Shown here: one piece after another, positions 22,418 through 44,905 of the stretch
Layout: each line of letters opens with the position of its first letter
How positions within the stretch are numbered: the first letter of the stretch is position 1
From: Deltaproteobacteria bacterium
GTDB taxonomy: Bacteria; Myxococcota; Kuafuiibacteriia; Kuafuiibacteriales; Kuafuiibacteriaceae
Assembly: GCA_040218735.1 (NCBI GenBank)
Contig: JAVJQW010000022.1
Coordinates: 64,001 to 128,000, forward strand
Reading direction: 5' to 3'
DNA length: 64,000 nucleotides
Made by a program: the position numbers and the translations under genes
The notes under the pieces: generated by a model
What the model was told of the DNA's origin: nothing
What the model saw: only the letters and a program-made list of their open reading frames with translations
Database searches by the model: none

Positions 22418-22529
22418 GCCGGCGGTGGAGCTCGCTGTGTGAGCCATGAACGCTCGCGCCACGTCAGGGGGACGGTTCGCTCGATGGTCTGCACAGGTGC
22501 CTAACTCTAAGGCGATGGCCGGCGTGGCG

Positions 22530-22695
22530 AGCGAGCGCTGGGATGAGAGGCGCAATTGCACCGCGCTCGATCGCGATCTCGATCGCATCGGCGAGCGCCT
22601 CGGGGCCGTATCGAGCTGCCGGTTGAGGTAGCCGGTCTGCGGTCGAATCGGCACGTCGCGTTCGAGCAGCGCCTGCAGAAACGGTTGGGGGAGTG
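22530..22695 (-). pseudogene. Possible frameshifted IS21-family transposase (IstA) C-terminal remnant
   Basis: PFLQALLERDVPIRPQTGYLNRQLD, frameshift, YGPEALADAIEIAIERGA; resembles IstA C-termini as recalled. Confidence 0.4.
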
Positions 22696-22898
22696 CCACG
22701 TCGTTGCGAAAATCGCTGCGGAGGAAGCCAGGCAACTCGCCAGCGGAAGCGGCTGGTCCTAGCGCGTGCCGGATCTCGTCGAAGGTTAAACTTGTCGACG
22801 TTATTGCGGCCGACGAGAACGTTGAGTCCAGAACGCAAATCCAGCCAGCAGTCGCTCATATTCCGGAAGTTTTCAACGACGACGGACGATAGATGCAC
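22695..22898 (-). pseudogene. Truncated, frameshifted OLD-family/AAA_15 ATPase N-terminus
   Basis: RBS gagga plus GTG; VHLSSVVVENFRN..LRSGLNVLVGRNNVDK (Walker A G to D), frameshift, DEIRHALGPAASAGE..DF, then lost. Confidence 0.65.
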
Positions 22899-23205
22899 GT
22901 CGCCTTCCTCTTTAACGATCTCACAGGTGGTACCCGATCGGTCAACGACCAACCCGCGCGATGCCCTCGTCACCAGCGAGCGCAACCGCCAAGACCGATC
23001 GGATCCGGAGGCGGGGAAAGCTGCTCTCGTCCATTCGACCAAGGCTGCACCCTCCACGATGGAGGTGCTTCGCCAGGTCCGCGGCAAATGACCTGACGAC
23101 GTCGCTTGGATTCCTTGGACGGCGAGCTGCGGTGTCGGGCTTTGAAACTCCTTCCGAGCGCAGGCCGAATCCGGTCCGCCTCGACGAACGTGAGGTCAGG
23201 GCTGT

Positions 23206-24873
23206 TCACGCCCCTGCGCCTACCAGTCGTGCCGTCGCCGAGTCCGCACATAGCACGGCCAAACGGGTCCTTGCCCGCGTCGTGGCGACATACAGGTCAC
23301 GCCGGTCCAAAGGTGGTCCAGTCGGCTCAGGAGCATCGATCAGCACCACAGCGTCGGCCTCCAACCCTTTGAATGATCTCACGGTGCTGAACATGACGGT
23401 AGTGTCGTTCCACTCTGCCAGCTCGGTGACGAGGCTCAGGTTGTGGCCTTTGCGTGCGGAGGCCATCGAGGACTTCTCGAGTGTGAACGGTGAGAGTATC
23501 GCCACACGCACTCCACGACCGGCCCAGCTCGCGGCATGCCGCCAGGCAGCTTTCGCCATCGCCCGCCGGTCGGCAATGTGCTCGACGACGGTGTCAACGC
23601 CCTCCGGCAGCCCGGGCATCGGCTTGACGTGCTCGTCCAGGACTCGGTTACCAGTCTCATTGATCCGCACCGTGTTTCGGCAGTTGTGAAGGAGCGAGAA
23701 GACCACCTCCGCTCCCACGGCCTCGCGAACGCGGCGGTCGTAGAGGTCCTGCCGGTCGTCGGAGCAGTACACGAATGTGCCGCCGGGGCGGACGAGATTT
23801 CGCGCTGCCCAGAGGCGGTACTCGCCGAAGTCTTGCCCCTCGTCGACAATGAGCGCATCCACGGCAAGCTTGTTCGAGCCTCGTGTCTCGACGAGGTCGA
23901 TTACGAGCCCGGGGAGCGTTTCGCTGTAGTACTCGTCCATCTCGCGCTTGGGCACTGACGGCCTGGGACCGACCAACCGAGCAAAGTAGCTGTCCGCGTG
24001 CCAGATGTGCTCGGCGAGATCCGAATTCTGCAGCCGCAGGTGGGTCGCGAGCATCTTGTTGAAGCAGAGGAACAAGGCCTGCTCGCCCTGTTCCACCAGA
24101 GCGCGCAGCCGCCAAACGGCGAGCACGGTCTTGCCGGAGCCGGCTGGGCCGGTCACAGCGACACTCGGGTGAAGGAAAATACCCCGGAGAGCTGCGTGTT
24201 GCTGGCGAGTCAGGACCTCGATGGTGTCTCGGTCTTCGACCACGTCCTCCAAGGAATCGGCCGGCCCGATCTCGAGAGGGTGGTTCATCAGCACTTCGCC
24301 GATCTCTGATGATTTGTCTCCGTTCAGAGGCTGGCGATTCTCCATCGTACCGCGCGCATTCAACGCGCTGCGAATCGATTTCGCCAACCCGGGCAGCTGC
24401 CTTCGGAGCACGATTGTGGAGGCGTCGAACGTGTTGAACCCTCCGTTCGTGATCTCGCCTTGTGGGTAGACCACGACGTAGCCGAATGGCCATGGGAACG
24501 CTTTCCAACCCATTCGGTGACAGGCGAGGCGCGTGATCTCGTGGACGTTCGATGTTGCTTGCTCAGGCGGCGTTCTTGGTGTGATTGCGGTCCATGCTAT
24601 GCCGTCATGACTTCGGTACCAACACCCGTCGGAGCCCACGCGCACATGCTTGGAACCTTTCACCTCCACAACACAGAGGCCAAAGCCAGGCGCAATGACC
24701 ACGAAATCGGCCTGTCCATCTCGAACCCACGTCCGGCCATTTGGACTGGTGCTCCGCGTGGTCCAGTTCACGTTCGAGAGGACTACCCAGTCGGCCGGTG
24801 CCTGCTGCTGGAGCTCATTGTAGACGACGCGCTCGGACCGGTTAGCGGGGATTGGACCCAAGATCCGCGGCAC
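23206..24873 (-). CDS. NERD nuclease fused to SF1 (UvrD-like) helicase
   Basis: QADFVVIAPGFGLCVVEVKG; GPAGSGKT; IVDEGQD; HNCRNT; SFKGLEAD; LYVATTRAR. Confidence 0.92.
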   Translation of the reverse strand: MPRILGPIPANRSERVVYNELQQQAPADWVVLSNVNWTTRSTSPNGRTWVRDGQADFVVIAPGFGLCVVEVKGSKHVRVGSDGCWYRSHDGIAWTAITPRTPPEQATSNVHEITRLACHRMGWKAFPWPFGYVVVYPQGEITNGGFNTFDASTIVLRRQLPGLAKSIRSALNARGTMENRQPLNGDKSSEIGEVLMNHPLEIGPADSLEDVVEDRDTIEVLTRQQHAALRGIFLHPSVAVTGPAGSGKTVLAVWRLRALVEQGEQALFLCFNKMLATHLRLQNSDLAEHIWHADSYFARLVGPRPSVPKREMDEYYSETLPGLVIDLVETRGSNKLAVDALIVDEGQDFGEYRLWAARNLVRPGGTFVYCSDDRQDLYDRRVREAVGAEVVFSLLHNCRNTVRINETGNRVLDEHVKPMPGLPEGVDTVVEHIADRRAMAKAAWRHAASWAGRGVRVAILSPFTLEKSSMASARKGHNLSLVTELAEWNDTTVMFSTVRSFKGLEADAVVLIDAPEPTGPPLDRRDLYVATTRARTRLAVLCADSATARLVGAGA

Positions 24874-24875
24874 GA

Positions 24876-27800
24876 TTACGCTCCCCCGGTCGGCGAAATA
24901 GCTTCAGCGAGGACTCTGTAGCGGGAGAACGCTGATGGCTCGATGAACTCTCGTGCTTCGATCACTCGGACGCGGTTGGGCACCTGACCCTTCTTCAGCA
25001 GAACAACGAGTCCGTCGTCGCGACGTGCCAAGTATGTCCCTTGAGCAAACGTACCGTCGAACGGCTGTTCATGCACTCTACGGAAGGTGCGGGCCCTGCG
25101 CTCAAAGGTCTCGCCTTTGGGCACGTCCCACGGCTCGGCCGGCGAGGTGGCACTTTTCACCGACAGCCTCGGAAGCGCGAGTCGCTGCTGTTGAACCCAT
25201 GACATCCGACGTTCCAGATTGAAGGTGTCTACGAGATGAACTCGGTCGACGCCTGCCGACTCTGCAAGTGTCGTCACCTCTTGCAGTGGATTGAGCCGGC
25301 CTGGCGAGATGCCCCAGAGGGGGTGTACAGCTGCGAACATGACGCCGGGTCGGTTGGCTTCGGTCCACGCGAGTGGCCCCTCATCTCGGTCCACGCCGAT
25401 GGCCTCGAGGTTTGAGTGGACTGCCTCCATCCGCTGCACCAGCGTCCGTGCTCGCGGACGCCAACGCCGTAGGATCGAAGATCCCGATGACAGTTCCCCT
25501 GAGCCGGGAACGAAGTCAGCGTCCGAGAATGTCGCGAGCAGGTCCAAGCCGAGAGCGTAATCGAGGAGTGGGTGGATGAAGCGGTTCTGGAACCCGCGAA
25601 GTAGCCCATCCGGGTCGCTCTGCCGTGGTGGCTTGCGCAGCTCCTCGGCGAGAGCATCGCCGAGAATGCTCTTCCCGTTCGGGGCGAGCAACAGCCCTTG
25701 CAGTACCCGTTCCCAGTGATCGCGTACCCAACGAACCAGGCCAGCTCCGTTGGGATGCTCATCAGCCAGGTAGAGCTCGGTGCCGCGGGCATTGTGGCTG
25801 AAGACGACGTGGAGTGAAGCGATCTCGATTCCCGTTGAGTCCACGTCGAGCTCGAGCGCTACCGCGCGTTGCAACAACGTTGCCGCCGAAAACCACGCGG
25901 CCCGGCACGCAGCCAGTCTGGGGCCGCTGTCGGGATCCGCGAACCTCAAGCCGTCTCGTTCGAGCGCACGAATGGCAAGAACATCGGTGGTCTTCGGGGC
26001 GACGATTGCGAGTCGACGGGTCGTGTCGTTTCCTCCAGAGCGGGGAACGAGACGCCAAAGGTGTCCCTCAGCTCCGGAGCTCGAACGAGCTCTCAGCCAA
26101 TGCTCCTGGCCGTTCCGGCTCACTGCAAACCCGGGAATTGCATGCATCTCGAACAGGCCACGCCCGCCGGGTGTACTCAGCCTGAACACTTCAGCCGTGT
26201 CGCTGAAGCCGATCTCGACGGAACCGTTCTGATTGTAGTCAGCACCATCCAGCCGAGGGGAGGTGACGAACGCGTGAGCATTATGACCAGGTGTCCGTTG
26301 GTTTCCGCCACGCGTGACAGATCGGTCCATCCGCAAGTCCGTCACGAAACCGCGTGGCGCTACAGCGATGAACGCGCGAGTGTTCGTTGAGCCGCAGGAC
26401 GTACACTCGGCACCCTCATGCTCTTGGAATGGGCTGTCCACGCACCACCAATCCGGAAGGTCGTTCTGGTGCTCCACCATGTCGTCGGAGAGTAGGGAGC
26501 TCGAGAAGTGCTTGCGCTCTGTCGTCCTGCAATCTTCGCAGAGCAGGACCCGGAATGTGGCGCCGATGGGACGGGTTCCCGCAATCCACGACCTCTGACC
26601 TTTGTACTCGTGTTCCTGAACGCGCTCGACGAAGCCCACGGTATGGAGCTCGCGCTTGTCCCAGGTCCGCACGGCGCCAGGAGCGAAAGCCGCGACGGCC
26701 TGGTCGAAGTTACGATCCATCGAGCGGCCTTCTCCGCCACCGTCCGTGGCGCGGCGAAGGTCGTAGTAGAGATTCCGAACGCTCGTCGGCATCCCATACA
26801 TCGGAAGCAGCCCCACCTCTGCGAGTCGTCCGGCCAGGTTCGGGTCGACCAGCTCAGGGTCCTCGACTGCTTTCTCGATTCGGGTGCGTAGCGTCGCGGC
26901 GACCGCGGCGAGGGAGTGTGCGTCGTGGTCCGTACCCCTGGCGATCACCGAGGCCACGCGTTCGACTTCTGCGTGGTTTTCGTCGAGCCACGACGCGAGC
27001 GCTTCTGCGTCGCTTGGAGTCCACTGCTCGACTGTTCCGAACTCGCCGTGAGGATCCGGCTGGGCATCGAAGTCTACCCATGAGCGTCCCAAGTCGCGGA
27101 AGAACTGGCGCAAGACCTCCTTGGCGACCAGCCGATCGGCGAGAATGGCTTGTTCCTCTCCGGTGGCGACGGCGGGCTGCGGTGGGGCTCCTCCAGTCAT
27201 TTCGTTCGGGTGGAGGAAGTGAACAAGGTCGTGCGTCTGGGCCCGGCAGTAGGTAAGTGCTGCAGAGTACCGCTGCCCCTTTCGTCCGGCGCGGCCGACG
27301 CGCTGCTGGTAGTTGAAGCGCTCTGGAGGCATGTTGGCCTGGAAGACCGACTGCAGCGACCCGATGTCGACCCCGACCTCCATCGTGGTCGTGACCGACA
27401 GCAGGTCGATTTCGTCGACTGGAGGCAGCGCTGCCCGCTCGTGGATGTCGTCCACCTGTTCGTTGGAGAAGAAGATGCGACGGAAGAAGCGTTGGCGTTG
27501 GCCCGGGTCGTCGGTCTGGCCGCTCAACTCCTCGCAGTGCAGTCGGAATGCAGTGTCGACCCTCTTCGACTCGCTCGCATAGTAGTGGGTGTCCGCAATC
27601 GACTCTGCGGTGTGAGCGGCGCTCGGGTCCGCGGGGAGATCGTTCAGGCACCGAGTGCACACCCCACCGGAGCGATGCCAATGGGTCTGTCTGCACTGGG
27701 TACAGATCCAAGGCCTCTGTTCGGGTTTCATCGGGCGGACCCAGGTGTGTGTGAGGCTTATGATTCCCCAAGTGCCATCTCCGTCTGGGTGCCCGTGCCC

Positions 27801-30800
27801 AGCGTCGATGAGGTTCTTACGCACATCATCCCGAAGGGAGGTGGTCGGCACGCGGTGGATGGCGGCCACGCGCTCGAGATATCGCCACACGCGCGACTTG
27901 CCTCGCCCTGTGGTCTTCTCGCTCGGATGATCTGCTCGCCAAGCCTGCAAGGTTCTGCCGAAACGGTTCGGATCGGTTTGGTTCTCTTCGGTCAACAAGC
28001 GAAGCACCGCGTTGGTCACCTCTTCGATGCCGGGGCCAGCGAGACTCGTCGGATAGTGGGCGCAACTACCCGGTTGGAGGCACAGGTGACCCACTCCCTG
28101 TGCGTCGAGGTCATAGAGCAGGCGTCCGGAGACCGCCCGCCAGGTAGCCATTCGCGTGCGTGCCCCGAGCTGCTGGAGTGAATCGATTTCCACGTTGGTG
28201 AGCGGTGGCGTCTGTCGCACACCGGGCAGCGGTTGGCTCCAGTCGAAGAGCGTTGTCCAGTCCGCGTCGCCGTTGTCGTTGCGCACCGTCCGGTCCTCGA
28301 GCGATGGTCCCGCCGGACATACGCCTAGACCGAGCATCCGCTCCCAGACGCTGGACATGCCACCCGTCGGTTGTGGAGGGGAGACGAGGTCGGTGAGTCG
28401 TACGGCAGAGGACCTGGCCAAGATGCGAGCTCGTTCCTTTTCTTCGAGCTCTTCCTCCTCGAGTTCAGTGAAGAGGTTCTTGAGCTCCTGCAGACCCTTC
28501 TTCGGCAGGTCAGCTCCTGACTTCGACACGATCTTCTCGACATCGCTTCTCGAGGCTATCTCGCCGCGGTCGAACGCTTCGACGACGCGTCCCTTCCAGG
28601 CGTCGATACTCTCCGCGTCCCCTCTCCGCAGTGCGTCGAACAGGAACACGCGGAACAAGTGCTCCCATTGCTCGATCTCCACTCCGGCGGAGAGTTTGGC
28701 TGCTCCTTCGCGACTGTCGGAGAAGGCGACCAGCTTGGTTTCGTTCGACCCACCCGATGTCACTCGTAGCTCGGACATCAAGTGCTTCGACAGGAGGTGG
28801 GACATCCTGAGAATACCGGTGGCAAATCCTCGAATGGGTGATTGTCGACCACCGCCTCGCTCGGAGTAGTCGGTTCCGCAGTGGGGGCACCGCTGTGGCA
28901 ATGCCGGAAACTTCTTGGGCACGGCCCCGTCCGCCTTCAGGGACGCACCGAGTTCGAACCAGAGGCACGGCAACGATTGCTCGTCCGGCGGATCGCCGCC
29001 GAGAAGTACGTAGCCGGTCTGGGGGTGAATCCATGCATTCACCCATTCGGCGTGCCGGAAGTGGGACGCACGGCCGAAGTCGCCCTTCGTTCGCTCGAAA
29101 CTGCCTTGCGCCCACTTCATGTGGCGCCTCTCCGGCGCCTCTCCGGCACGAAGCCAGACCACACCAAAGTCCGGGTAAGGCTGCTCGTAGGATTGGGTGT
29201 CGACGAAATCCTCGGGCAGTCCGTCGATACTGGACGTGGCGAGCGACAACTCGAATGCCTCAGGCCGCTGCGTCTGTCCCCAGCCTGGGATACCTCCGAC
29301 GTCGCCGGTCGCCTCGTGATGAACGGCTGTCTTCTGGCCCGAGAGGAACTGCGTGCCGCAGCACTCGCAGTAAAGCACCTCGAGCAGTCGCCCTTGGTCG
29401 TGCCACGCATCCGGCTTGGGACTGAGCGTGCCGACGGCGCGCTTCGGATCCTCTGGGAGCAGGCCAGGCAGCGCCCAAAGTCCCGAGATGTTTCGGACCA
29501 TCCAGTGGAAGCGGATCCGGGGTGCATCGATCCGGCCCCAACGTGTCTCGGGGTTCATTGGATAAACGCGTGACAGCGCCATCAGGAGGCCGCGCAGTGC
29601 GGTTCGACTGTCCGGCTGTTTCGGAAAGAGCGAGCCTTCGATCTCTGTCAGGGGGCGCGCTGTCGGGACTCCGTCCTTTGCGAACGCGGCGAGGATGCTC
29701 GCCGGCAGCTCATCTTCACCAGCCAGTGCTTGCAGTGCTCCATCGATGACATCTTGAGGAGCATTCACCCCCGCAGACCCAAGTGCGATGCAGGCTTCGA
29801 AGGTGGTAGGCGAGAGCTCGGCCGACCCCTTTGGCTTCCAGAGAGGGTCACCCGTTTCGACGTGGAAGGTGTCCCGTACGTTCTCGGCGGAGAGACCGAA
29901 GAAGCCACCCAGATAGTTCAACGTCTCGTCCGTTCCCTCGCTGAGAGAGGCAGACGAAGCCAAGATTCGAAACTGCGGATGATCGGGTGCCAAGCCCAAA
30001 CGATCGAGCAGAATTCGAACAAGGTACGCGACCTCCGTGCCTGCCGATCCTCGGTAGAGGTGCAACTCGTCGACGACGAGCTGGAAGACGTTACGCTCGT
30101 CGGCTTCGAGCCACTGGCGTGTCTTCCGGAAGATGTCGGAGTCGGCCTGGTCTCTACTGACCGACCGGGCTCGATTCCGCATCAACATGATGGATAGCAT
30201 GCTGACGTTCGTGATGAGGATGTCGGGTGGGTCAACCTGCATCTCCCACCGATGGAACATCTCTGCGGCGTTCGGGTCGATCTTCTGGACGAAGGTTGCC
30301 AGCTCAATCGCATGTTCGACGGCCTCCTTCGCAGTCGCCTCCTCGGACGTGCCTTTGGCCTCGTCGTACCGTCGACGTGCTTCGTCGAGTTGTCGTTGTG
30401 CGCCCGAATGCGCCTTCTGAGCATCTTGGAAGGCACGCTTGAGAGCATCACGCTTCGACTGGTTGGCGCGCCCCTTCCGCTCGAACGGGTGACCGGGCAC
30501 CGGGGTCTTGCCGATGAAGCGGCCGAATCGGATGCGGTTGTCCCCCAAGTGAGCGCGAAGAGCCTCATGGGCGCGATCGGAATCGAGGGCCTCTCGGAGC
30601 CGAGTCAGCTGATCTTCGACGAGAGCGTTCATCGGGTACAGAACGAGGGCACGGACGGCCGGAGTGCGCTCTTCACTACGTTTGGCTGCGCGGCGGTAGT
30701 CCCATGTGAATCGGTTCGGGTCGCGGCCCGTGGGGTTGCTCGGCCATGGCTTCGCGGTCTGGGCTGCCGGCCACGCCCGACAGGCTTCTTCGACGATTGT

Positions 30801-31199
30801 GGCGAACATGGGCAGGAGAAACGACTCGGTCTTCCCGGACCCGGTACCTGTCACCACGACGCAGTGCTTTCCCGATAGCGACCGTTCGAGGAGCTTTTGC
30901 TGGTGGGTGTAGAGTGGGTATCCGTTCTTGAACAGCCCTGCGCGCATGAGACTCACGAACGTCTCCCGAGCCTGCGCGGCTAGTCCCGGAATGTCCGCCG
31001 GCTCCAGTTGCTCAAGCCTTTTGCCGGACCGGTACTCCGGTTGTGGCTCGAGATAAGCCTCCTGGAAGAGGTTCCCAGGTTCGAGGAGCAATTCTCGCCG
31101 CTCGTTTTCAAAGGTCGGCGAGTTCGTTCCGAACGCGCTCGTGATGTAAAGGCGGATGCTCTTTTGGATCGACTCGTACACGCCAATGGGGTCGTTCAT
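24876..31199 (-). CDS. druE: Giant SF2 DEAD/DEAH helicase with DUF1998-like C-terminus; Druantia DruE-like (2107 aa)
   Basis: [79 protein letters not shown]; ATGA overlap with the upstream gene. Symbol inferred from size and context. Confidence 0.85.
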
Positions 31200-34100
31200 C
31201 TCAAGTCTCCGATTTCGTCCAGCCTGCACCCCAGTCGGTTCGCGACGATCTTCACGACCTCTCGGGGGACGGCTTGGTATTCGAGCCACAGGCGTACGTC
31301 GTTGGGAGGCAGGAAGTCCCTGTAGTTCCGGTCGAACGAGCCTACGAATGCGCCGCCGACGGTGCGTGCTCGCAGCCGATCAGCGTCAGTGTTTTGGTCA
31401 GCGATGAGTCTCGCCCGTGCCGGCGGACCTCCGCTGCATGCTACGAGCGCACGTTCGAGAATCAGCGGGAGTTTCATTCCTGCCGGTACCCACAATGAAC
31501 GAGTGACTTGCTGGTAGGAGAGAGGCCAGGGCGCGATGCCTGGGAACATAGTCGCAAAATGGCGGACGCAGGAGTCGTAGGCCATCCACGTTGCCCAGCG
31601 CTCATTGCGGACGTGCCGGTAACGGTAATGCCCAGGGGCCCCGTTGCGCAGCGAGTGCAGGCGATGGCTCCCGGTGTCAGGATCGGTATATCGCAGAAGG
31701 ACCCAGTCGAAGTCCGAGCGTGGAGTCGAGTCACTCCAGTCGGCACATCCTGGCTGAAACCACTCCCGGTCGTGAGCTCTCTTATCGAGTGTTTCGAATC
31801 CGCGTGATGCGAATGCTTGTCGGAGCTCCTCGAGCGACGAGCTACAAGTTGCGATCGCGGTCGGCGGTTGCTTGGTCACGTGGAAGGGGCCTGAGTCGCG
31901 GACGGCACCGCGGAGACGAAATACAGGCAGGCTGGTTTCCGGATCTTGCGACATGTAAAGGTCGGCCCCCGTGGCCACGAGATGCCTCCAATAATCTTGA
32001 CTTGGGGTCCCGCAGACGCCCCACGTCGGATCCTCTTCGACCATGAGTGGCAGGGCGTACAGAGTCGGGCGCACGGCGCCCACAGCTGTCCAGCGTCCTC
32101 GCGTGTCGGACTGGATTTCCAGCATGCCTCGCTGCCTGAGCGCTTCAAGCGTCGCGGTCGTCGTCCGTTCGGATCGTTTCCCAAGGTATCGGCGCAAGAT
32201 GTTCCGTGCCCTGCCGTATGCCATCCGTCCAGAGCCCTGAGATAGCGCATCCAGGAAACGCAGCTCCGGACAGTCGAGCGGCAATTGGGTCAGGTCATTG
32301 CAGACTCTTCCGAGTCGATGCGCAGCCACATTGATTCGGTTCGGCACCGCAGAACCTCGATCGGAGCCCTTCACCAGCATTCCGTGAACTGCTATGCCCC
32401 GTTCTAGCGAGCCGCGTGCCGGCACCAGGCCGATCGCTCCGGCGGTTTGCTCAGCGCCGCCGACCGCCAGCCGCAACTTGGCTTCGCCGAGGATTCTGCC
32501 CTCTGGCGACGTCACGGACAGGGTGAACAGCCGGTCGTCGCTCTCGACCTGGAGTTCGAATGTCCTGCGAGTAGACGGTTGGAGGAAACCTGGCTGTGAA
32601 GATCCACCAGCCGTGTCGGTGGTTTCGGCTATCGTGAGGCCCGGCGTTCGTATCTTGCAGCCAGGCGGAGCATCCACCTCGGCCATTGGCAGGTCGTGGG
32701 CGAGATAAGCGACGCGGCCCGCTCGGCGGATGCGCAGGCCTCCAATCAGGCGGATCGCTCTTGGACGTGAAGCGCTGGGGGGTACACCGGGGAGCTGGTC
32801 GCGCTGGTCAACGGTGAGTGTTGCTGCGTCCTCTAGGAAGAGCAGGCGCCAGCCGAAGGGGAGTCCTTGGCCAGGACACGTCTCGAGTTTGACGCGCTCT
32901 AGGCTCACCACGTGGTCGAAGTTCCGGTTCTCGGGGCTCACCAAGAGGTAGGTCGCACCTTGGGCGGGCATCGCGTCGAGTTCGACTAGGCAGCGATGTC
33001 GGCGGCTGAACTCGAGAACGGTGAGCGGTGATGCCGCCCACGTGAGGTCCTTCCGCCGCTCCGACGGTCGGAACCCATCGTCGAAGAATACGCTGAGCTT
33101 CAACTCCGAGGTCATGAGCTCGCAGTGTGCGCTATTCGACCCATCTGGTTTTGCCACTGCATAGGCGCTGCCATCGTATGCAGCGTGCCACCGCGCAGTA
33201 CCGTACTCCAGTGTGACGCGACCATCGTCCCGGAACGAAGGCATCCGCCATCCCAGTTGCCACGGTGGGCTGTTCCCGTCCGCGAACAGCGCGATACCGA
33301 GTCGAGAGTACGCGCGATGAGTCTTCGTTGGAGCCTCTTCCTCTTCTCCGGACTGCGTGCTGCCGTCCCAGTCCAACAGGATCTGGTTGAGACGTTCGAT
33401 CAATGCGCTTCGGTAATCCTCCTGAGCCGATGCATCTCTAATGCCGCGACTCAATACGTGCTCGTCGTGGATGCGGCCAAGCACCGTCCCTACCCGATCC
33501 AGAGGCATGGGTTCCCCGGGAGTCAGCCGGAGCTTGGAGAAGAGCGTGTGCAGTTTTTCGATGTCACTCGCCCGGATGATGGACTGTGACTTGAGCATGC
33601 CAATCACGGGGCGGCCACCGAGAGTGCGCGCCTTGAAGACACCAAACTTGCCCTTCGTTTCGGCTGTCCACTTCTGAAGGTCACGCCATAGTGCGTTGAC
33701 TCTGTCTAGCTCGTTCATCCCCCAGCTGTTTGGCAGCGCCAGACGGTCTTGTGCGTGCGCGTAGAAGCCACCCTCTCCGTGTTGGTATTCGACCGAGAGC
33801 GCAACCAGCGCCGCGAGGACCGGTAGGTACGGCGGGAAGTTGTCGGAGGCGGCTCCGTAAGAAAGATGACGCGTTGGATGGATGTAGCCCTGGGGCCGGC
33901 TGGCAGCGTGCCGCCTCTGCCGCATTAACCCGAGCGCCAGGTTCGTCAGGGCTCGCCCATCCGAAAGTTTCCAAGGCGGACCGTGCTGTACGGCCTGGAG
34001 GAGACCCTCGAAGCCGCCGAGTTCGGGCGCGATATCGTCGAGCTCGGCGCGCGAGAGTGAAAACGTGACCTCCTCATCCGCCTGAGTGGGGGAGAAGAAG

Positions 34101-34579
34101 TCGCGGAGCAGGGCGGCGTTCCATGCGCCGAACATGTCACCTTGCTCGAAACCGTCACTTTGCGGCGAGCTTGGACTTGCGCGGTTCGTGACGATCGTTC
34201 GAACTCCAACTCCGGGAAACGGATTGCCTCCCTCCGTGATGACTTCTACGGCAATGCATTGCTCCTCTTCCTTGAGTACCAAGAGACTGGGTACGGGCGT
34301 CACGGCCTGTGAGCTGTAGGCGCGTACCAGCGCTTCGTGGTCGACGTCGCCGTCAGCGATCAGCACGATCGCAGTTGCTCCGGTGGATGTTGCCTCGGAG
34401 ATGATCTTGCCGTAGTTCTCCGGCGCCCCAAGGGCCTCGATCAGCAACCCGTTCAAGTCCAGCGCCGACTCAAGTGCGGCTATTGCCGGTTGGTATTCGT
34501 CCTTGCTCGCCGACGAATCGTCGATGCCGCCTAGTGCCTCCGACAGAAGATCGTCCATATCATGGTGGGTGGTGTTCAC
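31196..34579 (-). CDS. druH: Large protein coupled to the helicase; Druantia type III DruH-like
   Basis: 1127 aa directly upstream of the DruE-like gene; [43 protein letters not shown]. Assignment by context and recalled resemblance. Confidence 0.65.
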
Positions 34580-35023
34580 TGGCGGCGTTCGCTACGGTCA
34601 TCATTGGGGGGGGGTGTCGTTCAGTCTCCTCGATGAGGGCTCGCAGTCGATGTCGGTCTGCTTCAGGTGATCTCACTGCGCGGGGCAGCTCGGTAGACTC
34701 ATTGAGGCAGGCTTACCCCCTGTTGATTATGGGAGCAACTCGCATTGCATGCGCGCGGTGAGGCCGAATTCCGCACGCTCATTCCCATCGAGCGGCCAGG
34801 TAGATTCGCTCGCACAAGCCGGTCGGGGACATGCGCCTCTTGATGCTGGCCAGTTCTGTTTTCCGTGTTCGGTTCGTCTTGCATTGCTACACTGAGGCTT
34901 GGCCATCGGCGTCCCAAACCACTGAAAGTAGGCACCGAAGCGCCTTCTAGAGATGCCAACGCATTCTCCGTCCGGTCACGGCCTTGGCCGGTAGCTGGGC
35001 TCGTCAAGCCCGAGGTTCTCCGG

Positions 35024-36247
35024 TCAACCAGCAGCGGCTCGACGATTCTCGTTCTCACCAGACATGCGGATGATATGCTCGTCCAGTGCTGCCAAGAAGT
35101 CGTCTCTGAACCTGAGCGTGCTGCGCTTCGTGCGCTTTCGAAAGCCCTCCGTAGCTCGCAGCGAAAGGAGGCGCCCCGCACCGAGGAAGGTATGGAGGTC
35201 CTTGTAGGCATAGCACTTCGGCCACTCGGTTAGTTCGGGCGCTCGGTAGGCGCGACCTTGGCGACCCCACGCCGCAACTGGCCACCGCGCGCCAGCTGGA
35301 ATCGGCTCGTAGATCTTGGTGATCGGCGCGGCCGGTTTCCCGAGACGTTGGCCAACCCACCGCGCTACGGGGACGCTCACCGCATTCCCGGCGAGCTTCC
35401 ATCGCGGTCCGTTTCTGCGTTTGGAGTCCTCGACAGCCGGACGGGTCCAGTTGCGCGGAAAGCCTTGGAGCCGTTCAGCGTCCACCAGCTCAGGCGTGAC
35501 GATGTCACCATTTGGAAGCCAAACCGCAGGCGGGGACGGGATTCCTACCGTCGAGCCTCCCTTGAGCGTCGGAATCGCGTTGATTCCCCAGCCCAGCCCT
35601 CGGATGCCTTCGGTCCAATAGAAGCCGTAGGCGATGCGCTTGTCTTCGTCGAATGCGCGCTCACCTTCCTCGTCGGCGAACAACACGGTTCGAGGATCTT
35701 CGGTCTGCGAAGCGAGCAGGATGACACGTCGGCGGCGCTGCGGGAGACCAAAGGCACGGGTGTCGACGACGCGGTAGCACCATGTGTACCCCATGTCCGA
35801 AAGCGTGTCGGTCAGGAACCGCATCGCGCGTCCGCGCTCGAGCTGAAGCATGAAAGGGACGTTCTCGATCAGCACCCACTTCGGCCGGGGCTTCATCGTT
35901 CGCATCAAGCGAAACATGTGCGAGACGAGCCCCGACTTCTCGCCCTCGATCCCCTGCGTGCGTCCTGCCTGGCTGAGGTCCTGACACGGGAAACCGCCGG
36001 CGAGCACGTCCACAGGGGGGATCTTGGAAGCCTGCAGATCACGAACGTCGGGGTGCAGCGGAACGTCGAAATGGTGCCTAAGCACCCGGGCCGCAGACTC
36101 GTCGAACTCGCAGAGGAGCTCGGCTCGATGGCCGGCGCGGCGCATCCCGAGCTCGATTCCACCGATCCCTGCGAACAGTCCAGCGACTTTCAATGATTCC
36201 CCTCTACTAGGGAACATGCTGACCTGCGCACTTGTGGCCCCTGGCAT
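35024..36247 (-). CDS. dcm: DNA (cytosine-5)-methyltransferase
   Basis: LFAGIGG, GGFPCQDLS, IENV, PQRRRRV, RLQGFP, AGNAV. Start uncertain (36217-36316). Confidence 0.96.
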   Translation of the reverse strand: MPGATSAQVSMFPSRGESLKVAGLFAGIGGIELGMRRAGHRAELLCEFDESAARVLRHHFDVPLHPDVRDLQASKIPPVDVLAGGFPCQDLSQAGRTQGIEGEKSGLVSHMFRLMRTMKPRPKWVLIENVPFMLQLERGRAMRFLTDTLSDMGYTWCYRVVDTRAFGLPQRRRRVILLASQTEDPRTVLFADEEGERAFDEDKRIAYGFYWTEGIRGLGWGINAIPTLKGGSTVGIPSPPAVWLPNGDIVTPELVDAERLQGFPRNWTRPAVEDSKRRNGPRWKLAGNAVSVPVARWVGQRLGKPAAPITKIYEPIPAGARWPVAAWGRQGRAYRAPELTEWPKCYAYKDLHTFLGAGRLLSLRATEGFRKRTKRSTLRFRDDFLAALDEHIIRMSGENENRRAAAG

Positions 36248-36302
36248 CGGGTCACACCATATCTCGAGGTCGATGCATTTGCATTGGTGGATTCGCCGTC
36301 CC

Positions 36303-36788
36303 TCAAGATATGACAAGGAGACCCGAATCGAGGTTCGAGCGCGGTGTCTTGCGACGATCGAACACGAGTGTCGACACCGTTTCCGCGGCAGAGACCGGGT
36401 CCACGTGGGCCCAGATCCGGATGACGTACCACGCCGCCCCGGCGAGCTTCTCGTTCGTGTCGCGATCGCGGCACCGGTTCGTCTCGATCTTGTCGCGCCA
36501 GAACGCCGCGTTCGCTTTCGGCCACGTCGCGTGCTCGGGGCAGCCGTGCCAGAAGCAGCCGTCCACGTAGATGGCGAGTCTCAGGCGTCGGAACACGATG
36601 TCAGCGCGACGCCGAAGACCGTCGATCACCTTCGCATCGATTCGGTAGCCGCGAACACCCAGCGCATACAGGCACCGGCGCAGCTCAAGCTCGGGGCGCG
36701 TGTCTCGTCGACGCGTCCGCTCCATTCGACGCTTTGCTTCGGGTGAAGAGGGGCGCGGCCCTCGCCGACGCGACCTCGCGTTGCTCAC
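36303..36788 (-). CDS. vsr: Very short patch repair endonuclease
   Basis: RDTRPELELRR, RADIVF, VDGCFWHGCPEH, FWRDKIETNR.RD. Confidence 0.95.
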   Translation of the reverse strand: MSNARSRRRGPRPSSPEAKRRMERTRRRDTRPELELRRCLYALGVRGYRIDAKVIDGLRRRADIVFRRLRLAIYVDGCFWHGCPEHATWPKANAAFWRDKIETNRCRDRDTNEKLAGAAWYVIRIWAHVDPVSAAETVSTLVFDRRKTPRSNLDSGLLVIS

Positions 36789-39094
36789 ACGAACCTCCGC
36801 AGAACGTCAAGCCACCGCGTCGCGATGGCTCGTCGAGCTCCGGCTTCGAACAGAGGACCAAGGTCGAGACCGAACAGCGGACCAAGGTCGAGACCAACGA
36901 GCCACGCCGGGAGGTCGAGTGAGTCGCCGATGGGCACACCGAGAAAGAGCCCGACGCCAAGCGCGGTGTTCACCGATCCAACTCCCCCGTGCACGAAGCC
37001 CGCCTCTCCGTTCACCTGGTACCGTGCGCCGCGAACGCCGGCGCCCTCGAGCGCGAAGCTCGCTGAGGAAGCCCCGGAGACGAGGCGCGCCTCTCCCTCT
37101 ACCCTGTACGCAGCGCGGACGACGCCGGCTCCGTCGCAAACCACCAGTTCGCTGACGTCGAGCTCGCCGATCTCGAGCCCCAACCCGCCGCCCGGTCTCG
37201 AAGGCACCGGCCAGCAGCGATGCTCATGCGCCCAGTCCTCAAGACCATCGATGTCGCGAACGAAGAGTGCGCGAAGATCGGCCGGGGGCCGCGACCACCA
37301 AGGCACGACTCGCTGCGGGCCACCGAAGCCTTCCTCGGTGTAGCTGACGCTTTCCCAGTAGCGTGCTCGCTCGTGCGCCGAGGCTTGATTCGCGAGATGC
37401 ACGATCACGTCATCGAGGAACCGAACGATTGCTTCCTCGCCGATTCCCTCCCGATCCGGACCGGGCTTCAGCGGAAAAGCGCCGAGACTCGGCAAGAGCT
37501 CGCCATGCTTTCGAAGCACTTCCACATCCGCCCCGGGATAAACAGCATAGGCTCCAACCGCGCCGAGGATCGCATCGCGATATGCGTGCATTTTGGTGAT
37601 GTCCGCTGGCGGCACTCGCGTCGTTTCTTCGCCGAGTGCGTCGACCGCCCTCTCGACACGATACTTGGCGTCGAAGTGTAGACGAACAGGCGTGGTCCAT
37701 GCTCCGGCGGGCTCGAGGAGACGAACCTCTAGCGAGCAATCCGGGCGCATTGACCGCGACCAGGTGCCGTCGCCGAGCTCGTACGAGCGTTCGTACACGA
37801 GATCGAGTGCCATCCTTCGACCGAGTCGAGCGACGAGTGCCCGGACCGCGGCGCGTCGGCCCCGGCGAAGCGCAAAGTCGACGCCAGTGGTCGTCGACCG
37901 AACCAAGGACTCGACGTCGAGCTCTTGGCCCGATAGACGCGCAACGATTCCCGCAAGGCGCAGGAACACCCAATACTCGTACAGGGTCGCAACGTCCCTC
38001 TGGCCCGCGCCATAGACGTCCTCGCCGCCTTGCCATTCGAGTTGCGCGCCGACCTGCGACAGCAGGAACGCCTCGAAGAGCTCGCGATAGCCCGGGCGCC
38101 GCTCGAGGACCTGATTGCCGACCGGGAAGCGAACGAGATCCTCCACGTTCCTCAGAACCGGGTGGCGGAGTAGATCGTTGAGAACGGCGTCCACCTCTTC
38201 GGTTTCGCGAAGCCCACGATTGACAGCGGCAGGAATCCTTCTGTCCGTTCCCGTCTTCTCGGCCAGCAGCGCGTCACGAAGACGCCACGTCACCGCGCGC
38301 CACTCCTCGAGCACGAATCGCACGAACCGATTGGGGATGGAGTCGGTCGTCTCTTCGTGACGAAGACGCTCGAGATCGGCTGGCAGCATCAGTGGTTCAC
38401 GTCCTGGCCACGGCTGCTTGGGGCCGGGCTTGGCGATCAGGCGAGCGACGCGGGACGTCGCGCGCAACGGCTGTCCCGGCAGCACGGTCTCGGGGTACTC
38501 GCGCCATTCCACGTGTGGGCGAGCCAGGACTACGGCGAGCGCTCCACGGAGGCGCGTCCCCATCAGCATCGCACGTACGAGTCGGAACTGAGCGTGGAGC
38601 CCATGGGGATCGCCCAAGGTGTCGGGTCGAAGCCGTTGCTCGGTCGCGGCGAACCGACGGAGCACGAGCTCCGTCGCAACGTTCGCGATGTCTTCGAGCA
38701 TGTTCCGATAGTCGTCGAGGTAGCCGAGCTTCTTCGAACGCACCTCGACGGCGACCTCGTCCAAGCGACGTCCGCCGACCACGATGCCGATCGGGAGACG
38801 CCCGGTATGCTCACGAGGACGAAGACGACCCGTTCGGCCGGAGGCATCGTCTGCGGAGATCAGATCGTCGGGTTCGATGCGAACAGGACCCGGCAGGTCG
38901 ACCTCGTAGCGATACTCGACCCCCTCGACCAGCTGAACTGGTTCTAAGGTCGTGGGTGGGTCGGCTCGAAGATCGAGCAGAGGAGGGACTGTTGGGTTGC
39001 GATCTCGGCCGAGCACCGAGATTCGAAGGCTGCCGATTATGGCGGTGTTCGTCGGATCGACGAGCGGCAGCTCGACGTGATCGACGGGAGCCAT
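36785..39094 (-). CDS. McrC-like DUF2357 / PD-(D/E)xK nuclease
   Basis: DSIPNRFVRF, PGYRELF, LYEYWVF, MRPDCSL...FDAKYR...DITKMHAYRDAI. Confidence 0.9.
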   Translation of the reverse strand: MAPVDHVELPLVDPTNTAIIGSLRISVLGRDRNPTVPPLLDLRADPPTTLEPVQLVEGVEYRYEVDLPGPVRIEPDDLISADDASGRTGRLRPREHTGRLPIGIVVGGRRLDEVAVEVRSKKLGYLDDYRNMLEDIANVATELVLRRFAATEQRLRPDTLGDPHGLHAQFRLVRAMLMGTRLRGALAVVLARPHVEWREYPETVLPGQPLRATSRVARLIAKPGPKQPWPGREPLMLPADLERLRHEETTDSIPNRFVRFVLEEWRAVTWRLRDALLAEKTGTDRRIPAAVNRGLRETEEVDAVLNDLLRHPVLRNVEDLVRFPVGNQVLERRPGYRELFEAFLLSQVGAQLEWQGGEDVYGAGQRDVATLYEYWVFLRLAGIVARLSGQELDVESLVRSTTTGVDFALRRGRRAAVRALVARLGRRMALDLVYERSYELGDGTWSRSMRPDCSLEVRLLEPAGAWTTPVRLHFDAKYRVERAVDALGEETTRVPPADITKMHAYRDAILGAVGAYAVYPGADVEVLRKHGELLPSLGAFPLKPGPDREGIGEEAIVRFLDDVIVHLANQASAHERARYWESVSYTEEGFGGPQRVVPWWSRPPADLRALFVRDIDGLEDWAHEHRCWPVPSRPGGGLGLEIGELDVSELVVCDGAGVVRAAYRVEGEARLVSGASSASFALEGAGVRGARYQVNGEAGFVHGGVGSVNTALGVGLFLGVPIGDSLDLPAWLVGLDLGPLFGLDLGPLFEAGARRAIATRWLDVLRRFV
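36847..36894. repeat. 24-bp tandem duplication (1 mismatch), in frame
   Basis: cgaacagaggaccaaggtcgagac / cgaacagcggaccaaggtcgagac; encodes GLDLGPLF twice. Confidence 0.9.
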
Positions 39095-39097
39095 TCG

Positions 39098-40699
39098 TCA
39101 GTCCCAGAACGAGGCGAACTGGTTCGCGTGCAGCGCTCGAATCATGCGTCGGACCTTTCGCGCTGCGCCCGGAAGATCGGGCGCATCGATGGGGGCAGCT
39201 GGGTCGTAGACTGGAGCGTCGAGCTCGGCAACGACGTCGTTGGCGAACGCACCGACGACGCGGAGCACGGGTTCGAGAGCACGGCGAGACCCGTGGAGGC
39301 GTGGGAGGATCTTCTGGAGAACGAATAAGTCGAGTGCTTCGTGGTGGTCGCCACCAGCGATGGCCAGCAAGGCGGAGAGGCGGACTCCCTCGAAGAAGGT
39401 TCGATGCCCGAACTCGACTCCCTGCGAGGCGAGCGCGGCGTGGAGACGCCGAACGGCGGCGACGAACTCCTCCGCGAATGGCGGCGGATGATCGCGATGA
39501 TAGTCGTCGTCGCGCGCCAAGACTGCAAAGCCTCGAGCGAGCTCGCCGGGCCCAGGTTCGACGACTCCCGGTCGAGCGACGCCAGATGCGTCGGAGGGTA
39601 GAGCGTCGGTGCCGACGCGGAACTCGATAGTGTTCGCGCGGTCGAGGACTTTGGGCGACATTGCGAACGTCGTTTCGTCGACGTTCACCGTCCCGACGAT
39701 GAAGAGATTCTCCGGGAATGGAAGGGCGGCTGCCGCCCCCTCCGCACAGTACCAGTCGTCGTCGACAGCTTCGAGATTCGGGACGACTGGCGTCCTCGAC
39801 TCGATACCCGACAGCGCGTCGGCGAAGTACCGCTCGATGTGTGCGAGGTTCATCTCGTCGAGGAGGAGCAGGTACGGTCTATTGGGGTCATGGGCGGCTC
39901 TGATCACGAACTCGAGCGTCGACGGAACCACCCACGGCCGACGCCCATCATCTGCCGGAGTGCGGAGCGCATCCTCATAGCCAAAGAGGTACTCGGGGCC
40001 TGTCCAATCCGGGCGGACAGGTACGAGGAGAAGCTGGTCGTCGCCGAGCCAGCGTCCGAACTGGAGCGCCAATTGCGTCTTCCCCGACCCCGACAGGCCT
40101 GTGAGCACGACGAATCTCTTCGTCGCCAAGCTACACACGAACGCCCTCGTCAGTCGTTCATGACGAGAACCGAAATCGAGTCCGACGTCGCGGACGGCGG
40201 TCGCAAACTCTCTGGCGACGCGCGCGATGTCGACAACGGCTTCGACGTCCGCAGTCTGCTCGCGCTCCTCCTCTTGGGGCGCGACCAGTTCGACCGTCAA
40301 GCCATCGTCCAAACGCTCCTGGACGAGGCGAACCATATGGCTGCCGGGATCCGCGACTATGGTTCCGACGCGCCAACGTTGCTCGACGTCGTCATAGAAG
40401 TTGAAGATCGCGCTGGCGACTTGCCTCGACCACGTTCGGTCATGCCAGTGCTCTTTCGCCGAGCGCACGGCACGGTCATGCGTCCTCTTGTTCCGCACCG
40501 TGAGACTGAGGAGGCCGCCGCTCGCCCCCGTCGCCTGCGAAAACTTGTTCTTGAGCTGCTGGCTAGGATTCGACACAGAGGTCCCGTAGCACTTCACCAT
40601 GCCGTCATCCGCGTCCAGTAGCTCCGTCAGCCACTCTTCCAGCTCCGACGGAATTACCAGCCGATTCGCTGCGTCGACGTCCTCGGGAGACGGATGCAT
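39098..40699 (-). CDS. McrB-like AAA+ GTPase
   Basis: GLSGSGKT, VPVRPDWT, LLLDEMNLA, GTVNVDETT, SPKVLDRAN, QKILPRLHG. Confidence 0.92.
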   Translation of the reverse strand: MHPSPEDVDAANRLVIPSELEEWLTELLDADDGMVKCYGTSVSNPSQQLKNKFSQATGASGGLLSLTVRNKRTHDRAVRSAKEHWHDRTWSRQVASAIFNFYDDVEQRWRVGTIVADPGSHMVRLVQERLDDGLTVELVAPQEEEREQTADVEAVVDIARVAREFATAVRDVGLDFGSRHERLTRAFVCSLATKRFVVLTGLSGSGKTQLALQFGRWLGDDQLLLVPVRPDWTGPEYLFGYEDALRTPADDGRRPWVVPSTLEFVIRAAHDPNRPYLLLLDEMNLAHIERYFADALSGIESRTPVVPNLEAVDDDWYCAEGAAAALPFPENLFIVGTVNVDETTFAMSPKVLDRANTIEFRVGTDALPSDASGVARPGVVEPGPGELARGFAVLARDDDYHRDHPPPFAEEFVAAVRRLHAALASQGVEFGHRTFFEGVRLSALLAIAGGDHHEALDLFVLQKILPRLHGSRRALEPVLRVVGAFANDVVAELDAPVYDPAAPIDAPDLPGAARKVRRMIRALHANQFASFWD

Positions 40700-41108
40700 G
40701 GCGTCGAACGTACGCTGCGCCGCGGGCCGATCCACACTCGCCCCAATCGCCCAATCCTGGGGCCATGGCAATGCGGAATTGAGCAGCCGGTTGGAATGGA
40801 GCGCGGTTTCTCGTTCGGACTCGGGCTGCCACCATCCGCATCGGCTGCGTCTTCGCAACAACGCATTACGTTCGACCAGAGAGCTAGCAACAAGCGGCAG
40901 GGTCTCTGCTCGGAGAACCGCCGCGACGCGGGCGGAGGTCTGCGGTCGCCTTCGAGTCCGACTGCTTCACCGTCTGCGTCTTGCTGTCCTTCCGTCCCGC
41001 GCCGCGCAACTTCGAAACACCATCGCTCTGGCTTCAACCCGCATCCGCAGGCGATCACGGCGTCGCAGTAGGTCGCCTAGTCTGATCGCTCGCCGCGCAC
41101 CCGCGCTC

Positions 41109-41144
41109 GAGGGCAAGTGTAAGGGCAAGTTCAAGTTCAAGGGG
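41109..41144. repeat. Short hexamer-periodic tract (AAGNNN)n
   Basis: gagggc aagtgt aagggc aagttc aagttc aagggg. Confidence 0.6.
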
Positions 41145-41164
41145 CCGTTGGGCTGCGCCCTCGG

Positions 41165-44858: not shown

Positions 44859-44905
44859 GCGGACATCGCCGCACGCGTCGAACGTGACGTGCGCGGCGAT
44901 CCCGC
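44859..44905 (+). terminator. GC-rich hairpin downstream of rho (no U-tract)
   Basis: gcggacatcgccgcacgcgtcg-aacg-tgacgtgcgcggcgatcccgc. Confidence 0.5.

Follow-up and report, generated by a model that had tools for sequence, protein, structure and literature searches.

A Druantia locus of predicted type II/IV lineage with a NERD-helicase gene, adjoined by a methylase-associated McrBC-like pair

The closest described relatives of the gene cluster analyzed here, which lies on the minus strand at positions 23206-40699 of a 64,000-nucleotide stretch of deltaproteobacterial DNA (assembly GCA_040218735.1, contig JAVJQW010000022.1, positions 64,001 to 128,000; hereafter the window, in which all coordinates are given), are the phage-defense systems called Druantia, which contain the helicase DruE. 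Type II Druantia reportedly consists of DruM-DruF-DruG-DruE, a definition said to come from Doron et al. 2018. The same definition is restated in the available text of the PADLOC paper (PMC8565338), where type IV is given as DruE-DruF-DruL, without DruM and DruG. Type I has been linked to host DNA methylation in the portions of the literature that were available. In the accessible parts of Bell et al. 2025 (PMC12458937), the DruE of types I and II is reported to have an inactivated Vsr-like nuclease domain, and, according to the same report, an inactivated McrB-like protein is encoded in the operons of these types. Type III consists of DruH-DruE, and its DruE is described, in the available part of the report, as a helicase-nuclease that engages intermediates containing single-stranded DNA (10.64898/2026.05.12.722862). 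We found no published mechanism for types II and IV, and the recent structural and mechanistic work that we found is on type III. According to the available text of PMC11090510, there are superoperons that join Druantia type III to CoCoNuT systems of the McrBC type, so the adjacency of McrBC-type and Druantia systems is not new in itself.

The cluster consists of seven long open reading frames (ORFs) arranged head to tail, and we think it fairly probable that they are two modules with separate histories that became physically fused. Module A (23206-36788, from vsr to the gene for a NERD-helicase) would be a Druantia system resembling types II and IV, and module B (36785-40699) would be a methylase-associated McrBC-like pair. 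The initial annotation had placed seven co-oriented genes here, and all seven ORFs were found in place on the minus strand. Six of its seven gene labels (McrB-like, DUF2357 nuclease, vsr, dcm, DruE-like and NERD helicase) hold by domain matches and motifs, and the seventh is corrected below. The four tight junctions also read as claimed: the mcrB-like and DUF2357 genes are separated by a gap of 3 nucleotides (TGA-CGA-ATG), the DUF2357 gene overlaps vsr by GTGA (in GTGTGA), the 1127-codon gene upstream of druE overlaps it by ATGA (GAGATGAAC), and druE is separated from the NERD-helicase gene by 2 nucleotides (TAA-TC-GTG). The start of dcm is ambiguous, being either the TTG at 36316 (with a 14-nucleotide overlap of dcm and vsr) or an ATG at 36247 or 36217, and the ATG taken earlier as the start of the mcrB-like gene is residue 55 of the longest ORF. 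Between dcm and the gene upstream of druE is a spacer of 444 nucleotides (34580-35023, G+C content 0.606) in which no ORF matched a family and neither Rfam matches nor consensus promoters were found; it is probably a second promoter region.

The seven genes are a discrete foreign island, and their clustering exceeds chance. The G+C content at third codon positions (GC3) is 0.70-0.77 in all seven genes, as against 0.87-0.90 in the flanking ligA, rho and FGE-sulfatase-like genes. The island status follows from this lower GC3 of all seven genes together with flanks that are ordinary housekeeping genes. The island measures approximately 18.7 kb, and the overall G+C content is 0.61-0.65 across approximately 22-41 kb, versus approximately 0.70 for the window.

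The locus is predicted to be a Druantia of the type II/IV lineage and not of type III, because its helicase matches the DruE2 model over its full length and also the DruE4 model, its partner protein matches DruF and, weakly, DruL, and there is no DruH. The helicase (24876-31199, minus strand, 2107 amino acids, with DEAD and Helicase_C domains) is a YprA-family superfamily 2 helicase of the DruE2/E4 type. It matched the PADLOC DruE2 model (PDLC00014) with 1488.1 bits, over residues 31-2035 on model positions 1-1922 of 1928, and the DruE4 model with 1212 bits. The DruE3 models gave only 153-229 bits, in 4-5 fragments, which does not fit the type III (DruH) framing of the initial annotation. The motifs GTGSGKTE and DELH were invariant in an alignment of 22 relatives, and 6563 of 7997 scored candidate relatives reached E <= 1e-10. 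A solved structure of a DruE nearer than type III seems to exist, because PDB entry 9wae_A, named 'Helicase' (1970 amino acids, with six further entries), scored 570 bits against the window DruE, far above the 87.5 bits of the type III-like chain 9tu7. We found no paper on PDB 9wae.

The partner of DruE is a long DruF. This protein (31196-34579, minus strand, 1127 amino acids) resembles DruF in its N-terminal part and DruL in its C-terminal part. It matched PADLOC DruF4 (84.5 bits) and DruF2 (PDLC00021, 75.1 bits) over residues 152-585, and the C terminus gave a weak DruL4 match (17.8 bits, residues 1018-1122) and another DruL match of 15.1 bits. Orthologues match DruL more clearly (36 bits in locus L019; 177 bits for the fused protein in locus L066), and the long DruF of clade relatives likewise combines a DruF N terminus with a DruL-like C terminus. 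The gene had been labeled druH-like, and that identity was rejected: the 11 PADLOC matches at E <= 0.01 are all to DruF or DruL, with no DruH model and no Pfam family among the matches. It was also tried as DruG and rejected, with an hhalign probability of 0.3 against a DruG2 protein, and no DruG model matched any of the seven window proteins in PADLOC. Structure comparison was uninformative. An AlphaFold2 model (mean predicted local distance difference test score, pLDDT, 77.6) had 0 Foldseek matches against the PDB at E <= 0.001, in a whole-chain search that is weak for multidomain proteins, and a profile of 23 orthologues found no PDB chain at E <= 1, even in a library that includes the type III DruE entry. 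The model contains no long coiled coil.

The methylase and Vsr genes belong with the Druantia genes. The C5-cytosine DNA methyltransferase, in the role of DruM (35024-36247 or 36316, minus strand, Pfam DNA_methylase, PF00145), matched DNA_methylase with 162.6 bits, the PADLOC model MTase_II PDLC03324 with 448.9 bits, and the DruM2 models with 77-132 bits, and it contains the motifs FAGIGG, GFPCQD, ENV, QRRRR and GNAV. The very-short-patch repair endonuclease Vsr (36303-36788, minus strand, 161 amino acids) matched TIGR00632 with 107.2 bits (cutoff 97.85) and Pfam Vsr with 58.7 bits, and has the motif ADIVF...YVDGCFWHGC. A Burkholderia multivorans replicon has a canonical DruF2-DruG2-DruE2 locus (L086) in which a methylase and a vsr come after DruE2. 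The window methylase shares 51% identity with that methylase and, as judged by this similarity, belongs to a Dcm-Vsr cassette that has the role of DruM in other loci. That locus (L086 9943-22074, minus strand) encodes a DruF2 of 927 amino acids (327 bits), a DruG2 of 704 amino acids (73.5 bits), a DruE2 (2261 bits), the methylase and vsr; it is unannotated in the plasmid collection and is a useful reference for PADLOC's type II.

The last gene of the operon encodes a protein with a NERD nuclease domain of the PD-(D/E)xK fold and a UvrD-like superfamily 1 (SF1) helicase (23206-24873, minus strand, 555 amino acids). It matched Pfam NERD with 41.8 bits, UvrD_C_2 with 43.4 bits and AAA_19 with 28 bits, and the motifs D...EVK, GPAGSGKT, DEGQD and TTRAR are intact. 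Its best PADLOC match is to RTasNERD-Hel (119 bits), followed by the 'NERD+UvrD' model C3a187 (71.7 bits) and Nhi (18.7 bits, E 1.4e-4). Membership in the Nhi family was considered and rejected, with only 18.7 bits for that model versus 119 for RTasNERD-Hel. No Dru model matched the NERD-helicases of the clade. We propose that this protein is the predicted nuclease effector of this form of Druantia. Literature text on Druantia and NERD, with figures and the newer PADLOC and DefenseFinder rules outside its scope, contained no mention that we found of a NERD-helicase as a Druantia component, and 'NERD' was not found in the available portions of the supplementary files of Bell et al. 2025 (PMC12458937). 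In the literature available in part, NERD is tied to TALON, Mokosh or Nhi-like systems, or not to Druantia.

The conserved unit of the locus appears to be an optional vsr and dcm followed by druF, druE and the NERD-helicase gene. GTDB species genomes were scanned with a profile made from a 22-sequence DruE alignment; 623 stretches matched and 605 were confirmed. The best 80 of these 605 loci were kept with 10-kb flanks (the window's own genome is not among them), and their 6982 ORFs were searched with the window proteins and again with DruK, DruL, DruG and other methylase queries. In all 22 loci with the highest DruE identity (L001-L022, 35-44%), a gene of the DruF family lies directly upstream of DruE. 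Its product has 992-1183 amino acids and scores 217-391 bits in 21 of them; in the other, L021, a 639-residue ORF is cut by the contig start and scores 38 bits. A NERD-helicase orthologue starts within 30 nucleotides of the end of DruE in 22 of 22 (400-483 bits, and 161 in L021), which bears out the suggestion that this gene is part of the set and not a chance neighbor. A PF00145 methylase is present in the fetched flanks of 21 of the 22, the exception being L002, where the 12-kb contig stops shortly past the helicase gene, and vsr is present in 11. Because of these frequencies in the nearest DruE clade, vsr-dcm is best grouped with the Druantia core, and the 5-methylcytosine methylase proposed earlier as a companion is a regular one. 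The full order vsr-dcm-druF-druE-NERD on one strand, as in the window, was found in 3 of the 22 (L013, L016 and L019), and the family and position of the methylase vary among the loci.

These results redraw the boundary within the cluster. The initial annotation had split the genes into one block of mcrBC, vsr and dcm and another of druH, druE and NERD, and had allowed that the two might not co-occur in other genomes. The conserved unit instead runs from vsr and dcm through the NERD-helicase gene: the vsr-dcm part of the first block does recur with the second (dcm in 21 and vsr in 11 of 22 loci), and the McrBC part does not (0 of 80 DruE loci). The core, in which a fused DruF-L is accompanied by a seemingly obligatory methylase and a predicted NERD-helicase effector, is conserved in at least 22 species genomes.

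The window DruE falls within a clade of NERD-type loci. In trees made with FastTree from the first 700 residues, it lies inside a clade with Shimodaira-Hasegawa-like support of 97 that includes all 13 NERD loci sampled, and the NERD label is one change on the 66-row tree. The clade is found in Pseudomonadota, Bacillota, Verrucomicrobiota and Planctomycetota, as well as in this high-GC genome. It includes a protein of Massilia litorea (P0039), the species whose DruE bears the label 'Druantia Type II-like' in Table S1 of Bell et al. 2025 (PMC12458937), in the material available. The helicase clade is thus already catalogued, as 'Druantia Type II-like (Type IV CoCoNuT)', a label that reaches the window DruE by proxy, because a search of the table did not find the window protein itself. 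Some NERD-type loci (L007 2658-6384, L016 3766-5001 and L019 18802-23417) adjoin genes for phage-type integrases, a filamentous-phage-like replication protein, or TrwC/TrwB. Because of these adjoining genes, we suggest that such loci are carried on integrative or conjugative elements; the window island has no such gene.

The presence of a methylase goes together with that of a nuclease gene after DruE. We sorted the 69 loci with an unbroken DruE by architecture (11 of the 80, in which DruE is split or cut, were dropped). A NERD-helicase is present in 21 of the 69, with a methylase in 21 of 21. In another 19, a Cas4-like PD-(D/E)xK protein, named DruK in PADLOC-DB, directly follows DruE, with a methylase in 19 of 19. 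There is no nuclease gene after DruE in 25 loci, of which 6 have a methylase and 19 do not, and the remaining 4 are cut too near DruE to class. A methylase thus accompanies 40 of 40 loci with a nuclease partner versus 6 of 25 without (Fisher p = 1.4e-11), which suggests that the methylase goes with the nuclease effector, an association not shown beyond shared ancestry.

Compared with described systems, the locus is a Druantia variant, as had been proposed, of a little-studied form, and fits none of types I-IV exactly: it has a methylase and lacks DruG and DruH. It resembles type II in its DruE2-type helicase (1488 bits), its C5-cytosine methylase and the DruF-family N-terminal part encoded upstream of DruE, and differs in that DruG is lacking, DruF is fused to a DruL-like part, and a NERD-UvrD helicase follows DruE in every clade member. 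It resembles PADLOC's type IV in its DruF and weakly DruL-like sequences and its related DruE (DruE4, 1212 bits), and the window clade is sister to such loci; in the window, however, F and L are one polypeptide, a methylase gene lies 444 nucleotides upstream of druF, and a nuclease-helicase has been added. The DruK-bearing loci are similar in having a PD-(D/E)xK nuclease gene directly after DruE and a methylase nearby (19 of 19), but here NERD is fused to an SF1 helicase and is not a Cas4-like protein, and the DruE clade is different. Like type III, the locus combines a giant YprA-family helicase with one partner of approximately 1100 amino acids, and we use loading on single-stranded intermediates as a working analogy; type III, according to the portions of the sources available, has no methylase and has its own PLD nuclease, whereas the window has no DruH and only 229 bits to DruE3. 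Finally, Nhi and other stand-alone NERD-helicases also join a NERD nuclease to an SF1 helicase in one protein, but the Nhi model gives only 18.7 bits and in the window's family the gene always directly follows DruE.

From the domains, catalytic motifs, junctions, foreign composition and conservation described here, we infer the following biochemical steps for module A. Dcm would mark host DNA as self, and Vsr would repair the T:G mismatches that arise from deamination of 5-methylcytosine, limiting the mutational cost of the mark. DruF-L and DruE would detect and unwind invading or replicating DNA that is unmethylated. The NERD-helicase, in the same slot as DruK in sister clades, would be the nuclease that degrades the unwound DNA.

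The McrB-like and McrC-like proteins of module B appear to be a separate, methylase-associated restriction module that is joined to the Druantia operon in this genome. The McrB-like AAA+ GTPase (39098-40699, minus strand, 533 amino acids) is of the NxD-motif type with an N-terminal domain of approximately 190 residues. Its residues 188-363 match the McrB chains 6hz4, 6ut6 and 7vsr in the PDB at E values of 3.5e-4 to 9e-4. PADLOC PDC-M26A gave 149 bits, and Pfam AAA_22 and AAA_5 matched below threshold only. The motifs GLSGSGKT (Walker A), LLLLDEMN (Walker B) and GTVNVDET are intact, the last of them containing a shortened N-x-D signature with E as the next residue. No Pfam family covers residues 1-190, and the best template modeling (TM) score in an atlas structure search was 0.41, which gave no usable lead. 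We rejected the protein as the CnuB of a CoCoNuT system, and the pair as a CoCoNuT, because there is no long coiled coil or coiled-coil fusion. The McrC-like nuclease (36785-39094, minus strand, 769 amino acids) comprises DUF2357 at residues 88-343, a PD-(D/E)xK domain at 370-522 and a C-terminal extension of approximately 250 residues. DUF2357 (142.5 bits) and PDDEXK_7 (96.4 bits) both exceed their Pfam cutoffs, and the nuclease motif RPD...FDAKY is intact. Within the C-terminal extension is an in-frame tandem duplication of 24 nucleotides (36847-36894, 96% identical) that encodes GLDLGPLF twice.

The separate standing of module B is suggested by its absence from other DruE loci and by the distance of its relatives. 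The pair was found in 0 of 80 DruE loci, by phmmer and with a family hidden Markov model (HMM) built from 40 homologues; as a positive control, this HMM reached 1e-80 on two distant plasmid relatives. A Pfam search of 144 proteins encoded in the flanks of 21 clade loci, a set from which five small ORFs had been left out for size, found no AAA_5, DUF2357 or McrC domain. The best homologue of the McrC-like protein, besides its own record, in a search of 5.8 billion proteins was 46% identical, in contrast to near relatives of DruE at 75% and 65% identity and of DruF at 62% and 53%. Relatives of the McrC-like protein in the plasmid collection are distant only (5 records at 26-28% identity); the distant plasmid relatives of the pair adjoin two methyltransferases, and one McrB-like domain is fused to a methyltransferase. 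The pair is so far an add-on seen in this genome only, as judged against the 80 DruE loci.

Module B would act as a GTP-driven translocating endonuclease of the methyltransferase-associated kind, translationally coupled to vsr-dcm. LlaJI is a restriction-modification system with two methylases. As in LlaJI and other NxD McrBC-like systems, a single operon encodes a DNA methylase together with an McrB-like GTPase whose NxD precedes an E and its DUF2357-PD-DxK partner. The order here is mcrB-like, mcrC-like, vsr, dcm, with a 3-nucleotide gap and a GTGA overlap, so that both subunits share an operon with a 5-methylcytosine methylase, as LlaJI-like systems do. It differs from LlaJI in having one methylase and not two, in its N-terminal recognition domain with no family match, and in an operon that runs on into Druantia. 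The NxD signature marks a large branch of McrB-like GTPases, many of which are associated with DNA methyltransferases by context, according to the available text of Bell et al. 2024 (PMC11090510). Because the pair is translationally coupled to vsr-dcm and the NxD branch is associated with methylases, we lean slightly toward a LlaJI-like restriction enzyme that would be blocked by the same methylation, over a modification-dependent type IV enzyme.

The latter reading, a type IV enzyme with no functional link to Dcm, concerns module B only and is otherwise compatible with two fused modules; we regard it as the less likely of the two but the strongest of the alternatives. The closest solved relatives of the McrB-like protein are the GTPase domains of E. 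coli McrB, and the N-terminal domain with no family match could be a reader of modified bases. Furthermore, a type IV enzyme and Dcm can coexist if their sequence contexts differ, as with Dcm and McrBC in E. coli K-12. The coupling of the pair to vsr-dcm argues against this, as do the methyltransferases that are associated with or fused to the NxD branch and the distant plasmid relatives, as in the LlaJI layout.

We also considered whether restriction and Druantia might form two stages of one defense, and think this doubtful, if worth stating. An exchangeable restriction nuclease would cut an unmethylated invader, and DruF-L, DruE and the NERD-helicase would load on the ends and destroy the genome. 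The first stage would vary from locus to locus (McrBC-like here; MvaI/BcnI, type IIG, HNH or GIY-YIG elsewhere) and would share the methylation mark. One hint is that 12 of 21 clade loci have another nuclease gene beside the methylase. Its product is an MvaI/BcnI restriction endonuclease in L006, L013 and L021 and a type IIG restriction endonuclease-methyltransferase in L007, L008, L011, L012, L014 and L015; L003 and L004 encode an HNH fusion, and L019 a GIY-YIG protein. If such a design holds, the seven-gene 'supersystem' of the initial annotation would be one instance of a general scheme.

The supersystem itself, that is, one obligate seven-gene unit in which the methylase marks self, McrBC-like cuts make ends, and DruE and the NERD-helicase load and degrade, is in our view unlikely. 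Its co-orientation is in its favor, as are the 4 of 6 junctions that are overlaps or gaps of at most 3 nucleotides, with the GTGA overlap of the mcrC-like gene and vsr bridging both conserved units. The uniform GC3 of the seven genes against that of the host genes, the second nuclease gene in 12 of 21 clade loci, and the reported superoperons of CoCoNuT systems with Druantia type III (PMC11090510, available text) would also fit. Conservation does not bear it out: in a comparison of gene set and order across DruE loci, a check suggested with the initial annotation, the McrB-like/DUF2357 pair occurs in 0 of 80, and neither member of the pair is among the 144 proteins encoded in the flanks of 21 clade loci. 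The independent cases are fewer than the 12 of 21 suggests, because the six loci with type IIG enzymes all belong to a single close lineage. The best homologue of the pair is 46% identical, versus 75% for DruE, and a 444-nucleotide spacer separates dcm from druF. Canonical McrBC (AAA_5 with PF10117, a different McrC family) lies near DruE in only two of the 80 loci (L065 and L074; the flanks of L023-L080 had no exhaustive Pfam scan), which are of another architecture class. In these two (L065 19526-22986, a Bacillus isolate, and L074 19815-23896, a Planctomycetota metagenome-assembled genome) the McrBC genes are a few kb downstream of a DruK-type Druantia, and in L065 a gene for a Schlafen-type helicase adjoins the McrBC pair; this is ordinary clustering of defense islands.

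Least probable is that the island merely houses unrelated systems, three or four in number (type IV McrBC, an orphan or restriction-modification Dcm-Vsr, a PADLOC type IV Druantia and a stand-alone Nhi-like NERD-helicase): proteins that combine NERD with an SF1 helicase do act alone in other defenses (C3a187 matches with 71.7 bits, and Nhi weakly), related Dcm-Vsr pairs occur with no DruE nearby in L083 and L084, and methylase family and position vary in the clade, but the NERD-helicase gene starts within 30 nucleotides of the end of DruE in 22 of 22 loci with one change of label on the tree, the plasmid collection held no close NERD orthologue at a distance from DruE (4 records at 26-31% identity), and a methylase is present in 21 of 22 NERD and 19 of 19 DruK loci versus 6 of 25 that have no nuclease partner.

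Several observations weigh against two fused modules as we describe them. One functional unit would account equally well for the uniform GC3 of the seven genes and for the GTGA overlap that couples the mcrC-like gene to vsr. The 80-locus set in which the pair is absent lacks the window's own genome and the nearest DruE relatives (75% and 65% identity). The nuclease and methylase traits change 4 and 5 times on the tree, giving 2-4 independent pairs (sign test p = 1), and with so few independent changes their link may be shared ancestry alone. Two features reported for type II did not appear: an inactive Vsr-like domain in DruE was not confirmed (hhalign probability 0.1 for the DruE alignment against the window Vsr), and no protein was confirmed as an 'inactivated CnuB/McrB homologue' (hhalign probability 0.2 for the long DruF against the McrB-like protein). 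No promoter could be placed, with 2 promoter-like sites versus 1.9 expected from shuffled sequences (using the sigma-70 consensus, which may not suit the organism), and no terminator could be placed, with 6 terminator-like sites versus 12 expected. We found no experiment on Druantia type II or IV in the literature, and the mechanism is by analogy.

If the locus is indeed a Druantia core with a fused restriction module, it and its 22 relatives define a compact, widespread form of Druantia in which the missing nuclease is apparently supplied by the NERD-UvrD protein. The core would be expected to be toxic without the methylase, and mutants in the NERD active site would be expected to lose defense. 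The form can be compared cleanly with the forms that bear DruK and with those that have no nuclease, and the fusion to the McrBC-like pair would be a natural test of cooperation between restriction and Druantia through one methylation mark.

No tRNA gene was found in the 64-kb window, the direct repeats at the island borders are only short, chance-like matches, there is no integrase within the island, and Rfam gave 0 matches at E <= 0.1 across 22000-41500. The flanking genes encode an OPT transporter, an EEP-family enzyme, an SDR, LigA, Rho, a protein with CARDB repeats and a sigma-54 activator. At the left edge of the island is an ORF of 207 amino acids (22464-23087, minus strand, GC3 0.63), whose similarity to the N-terminal P-loop of OLD/GajA-type ATPases is confined to residues 65-100 (AAA_15, 23.8 bits; GajA, 28.4 bits). 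It is probably a remnant of another defense gene, an OLD/GajA-like ATPase, and lies outside the system.

Two further features of the flanks stood out. Directly after rho, on the plus strand, 44884-49773 encodes a protein of 1629 amino acids with 11 CARDB repeats and C-terminal DUF4215 and DUF4082 domains, in a region of strong negative GC skew. On the other side, approximately 6 kb from the island, an ORF of 244 amino acids (16205-16939, minus strand) with no Pfam family has a GC3 of 0.56, versus 0.87-0.98 in its neighbors, and may be a second small foreign insertion.

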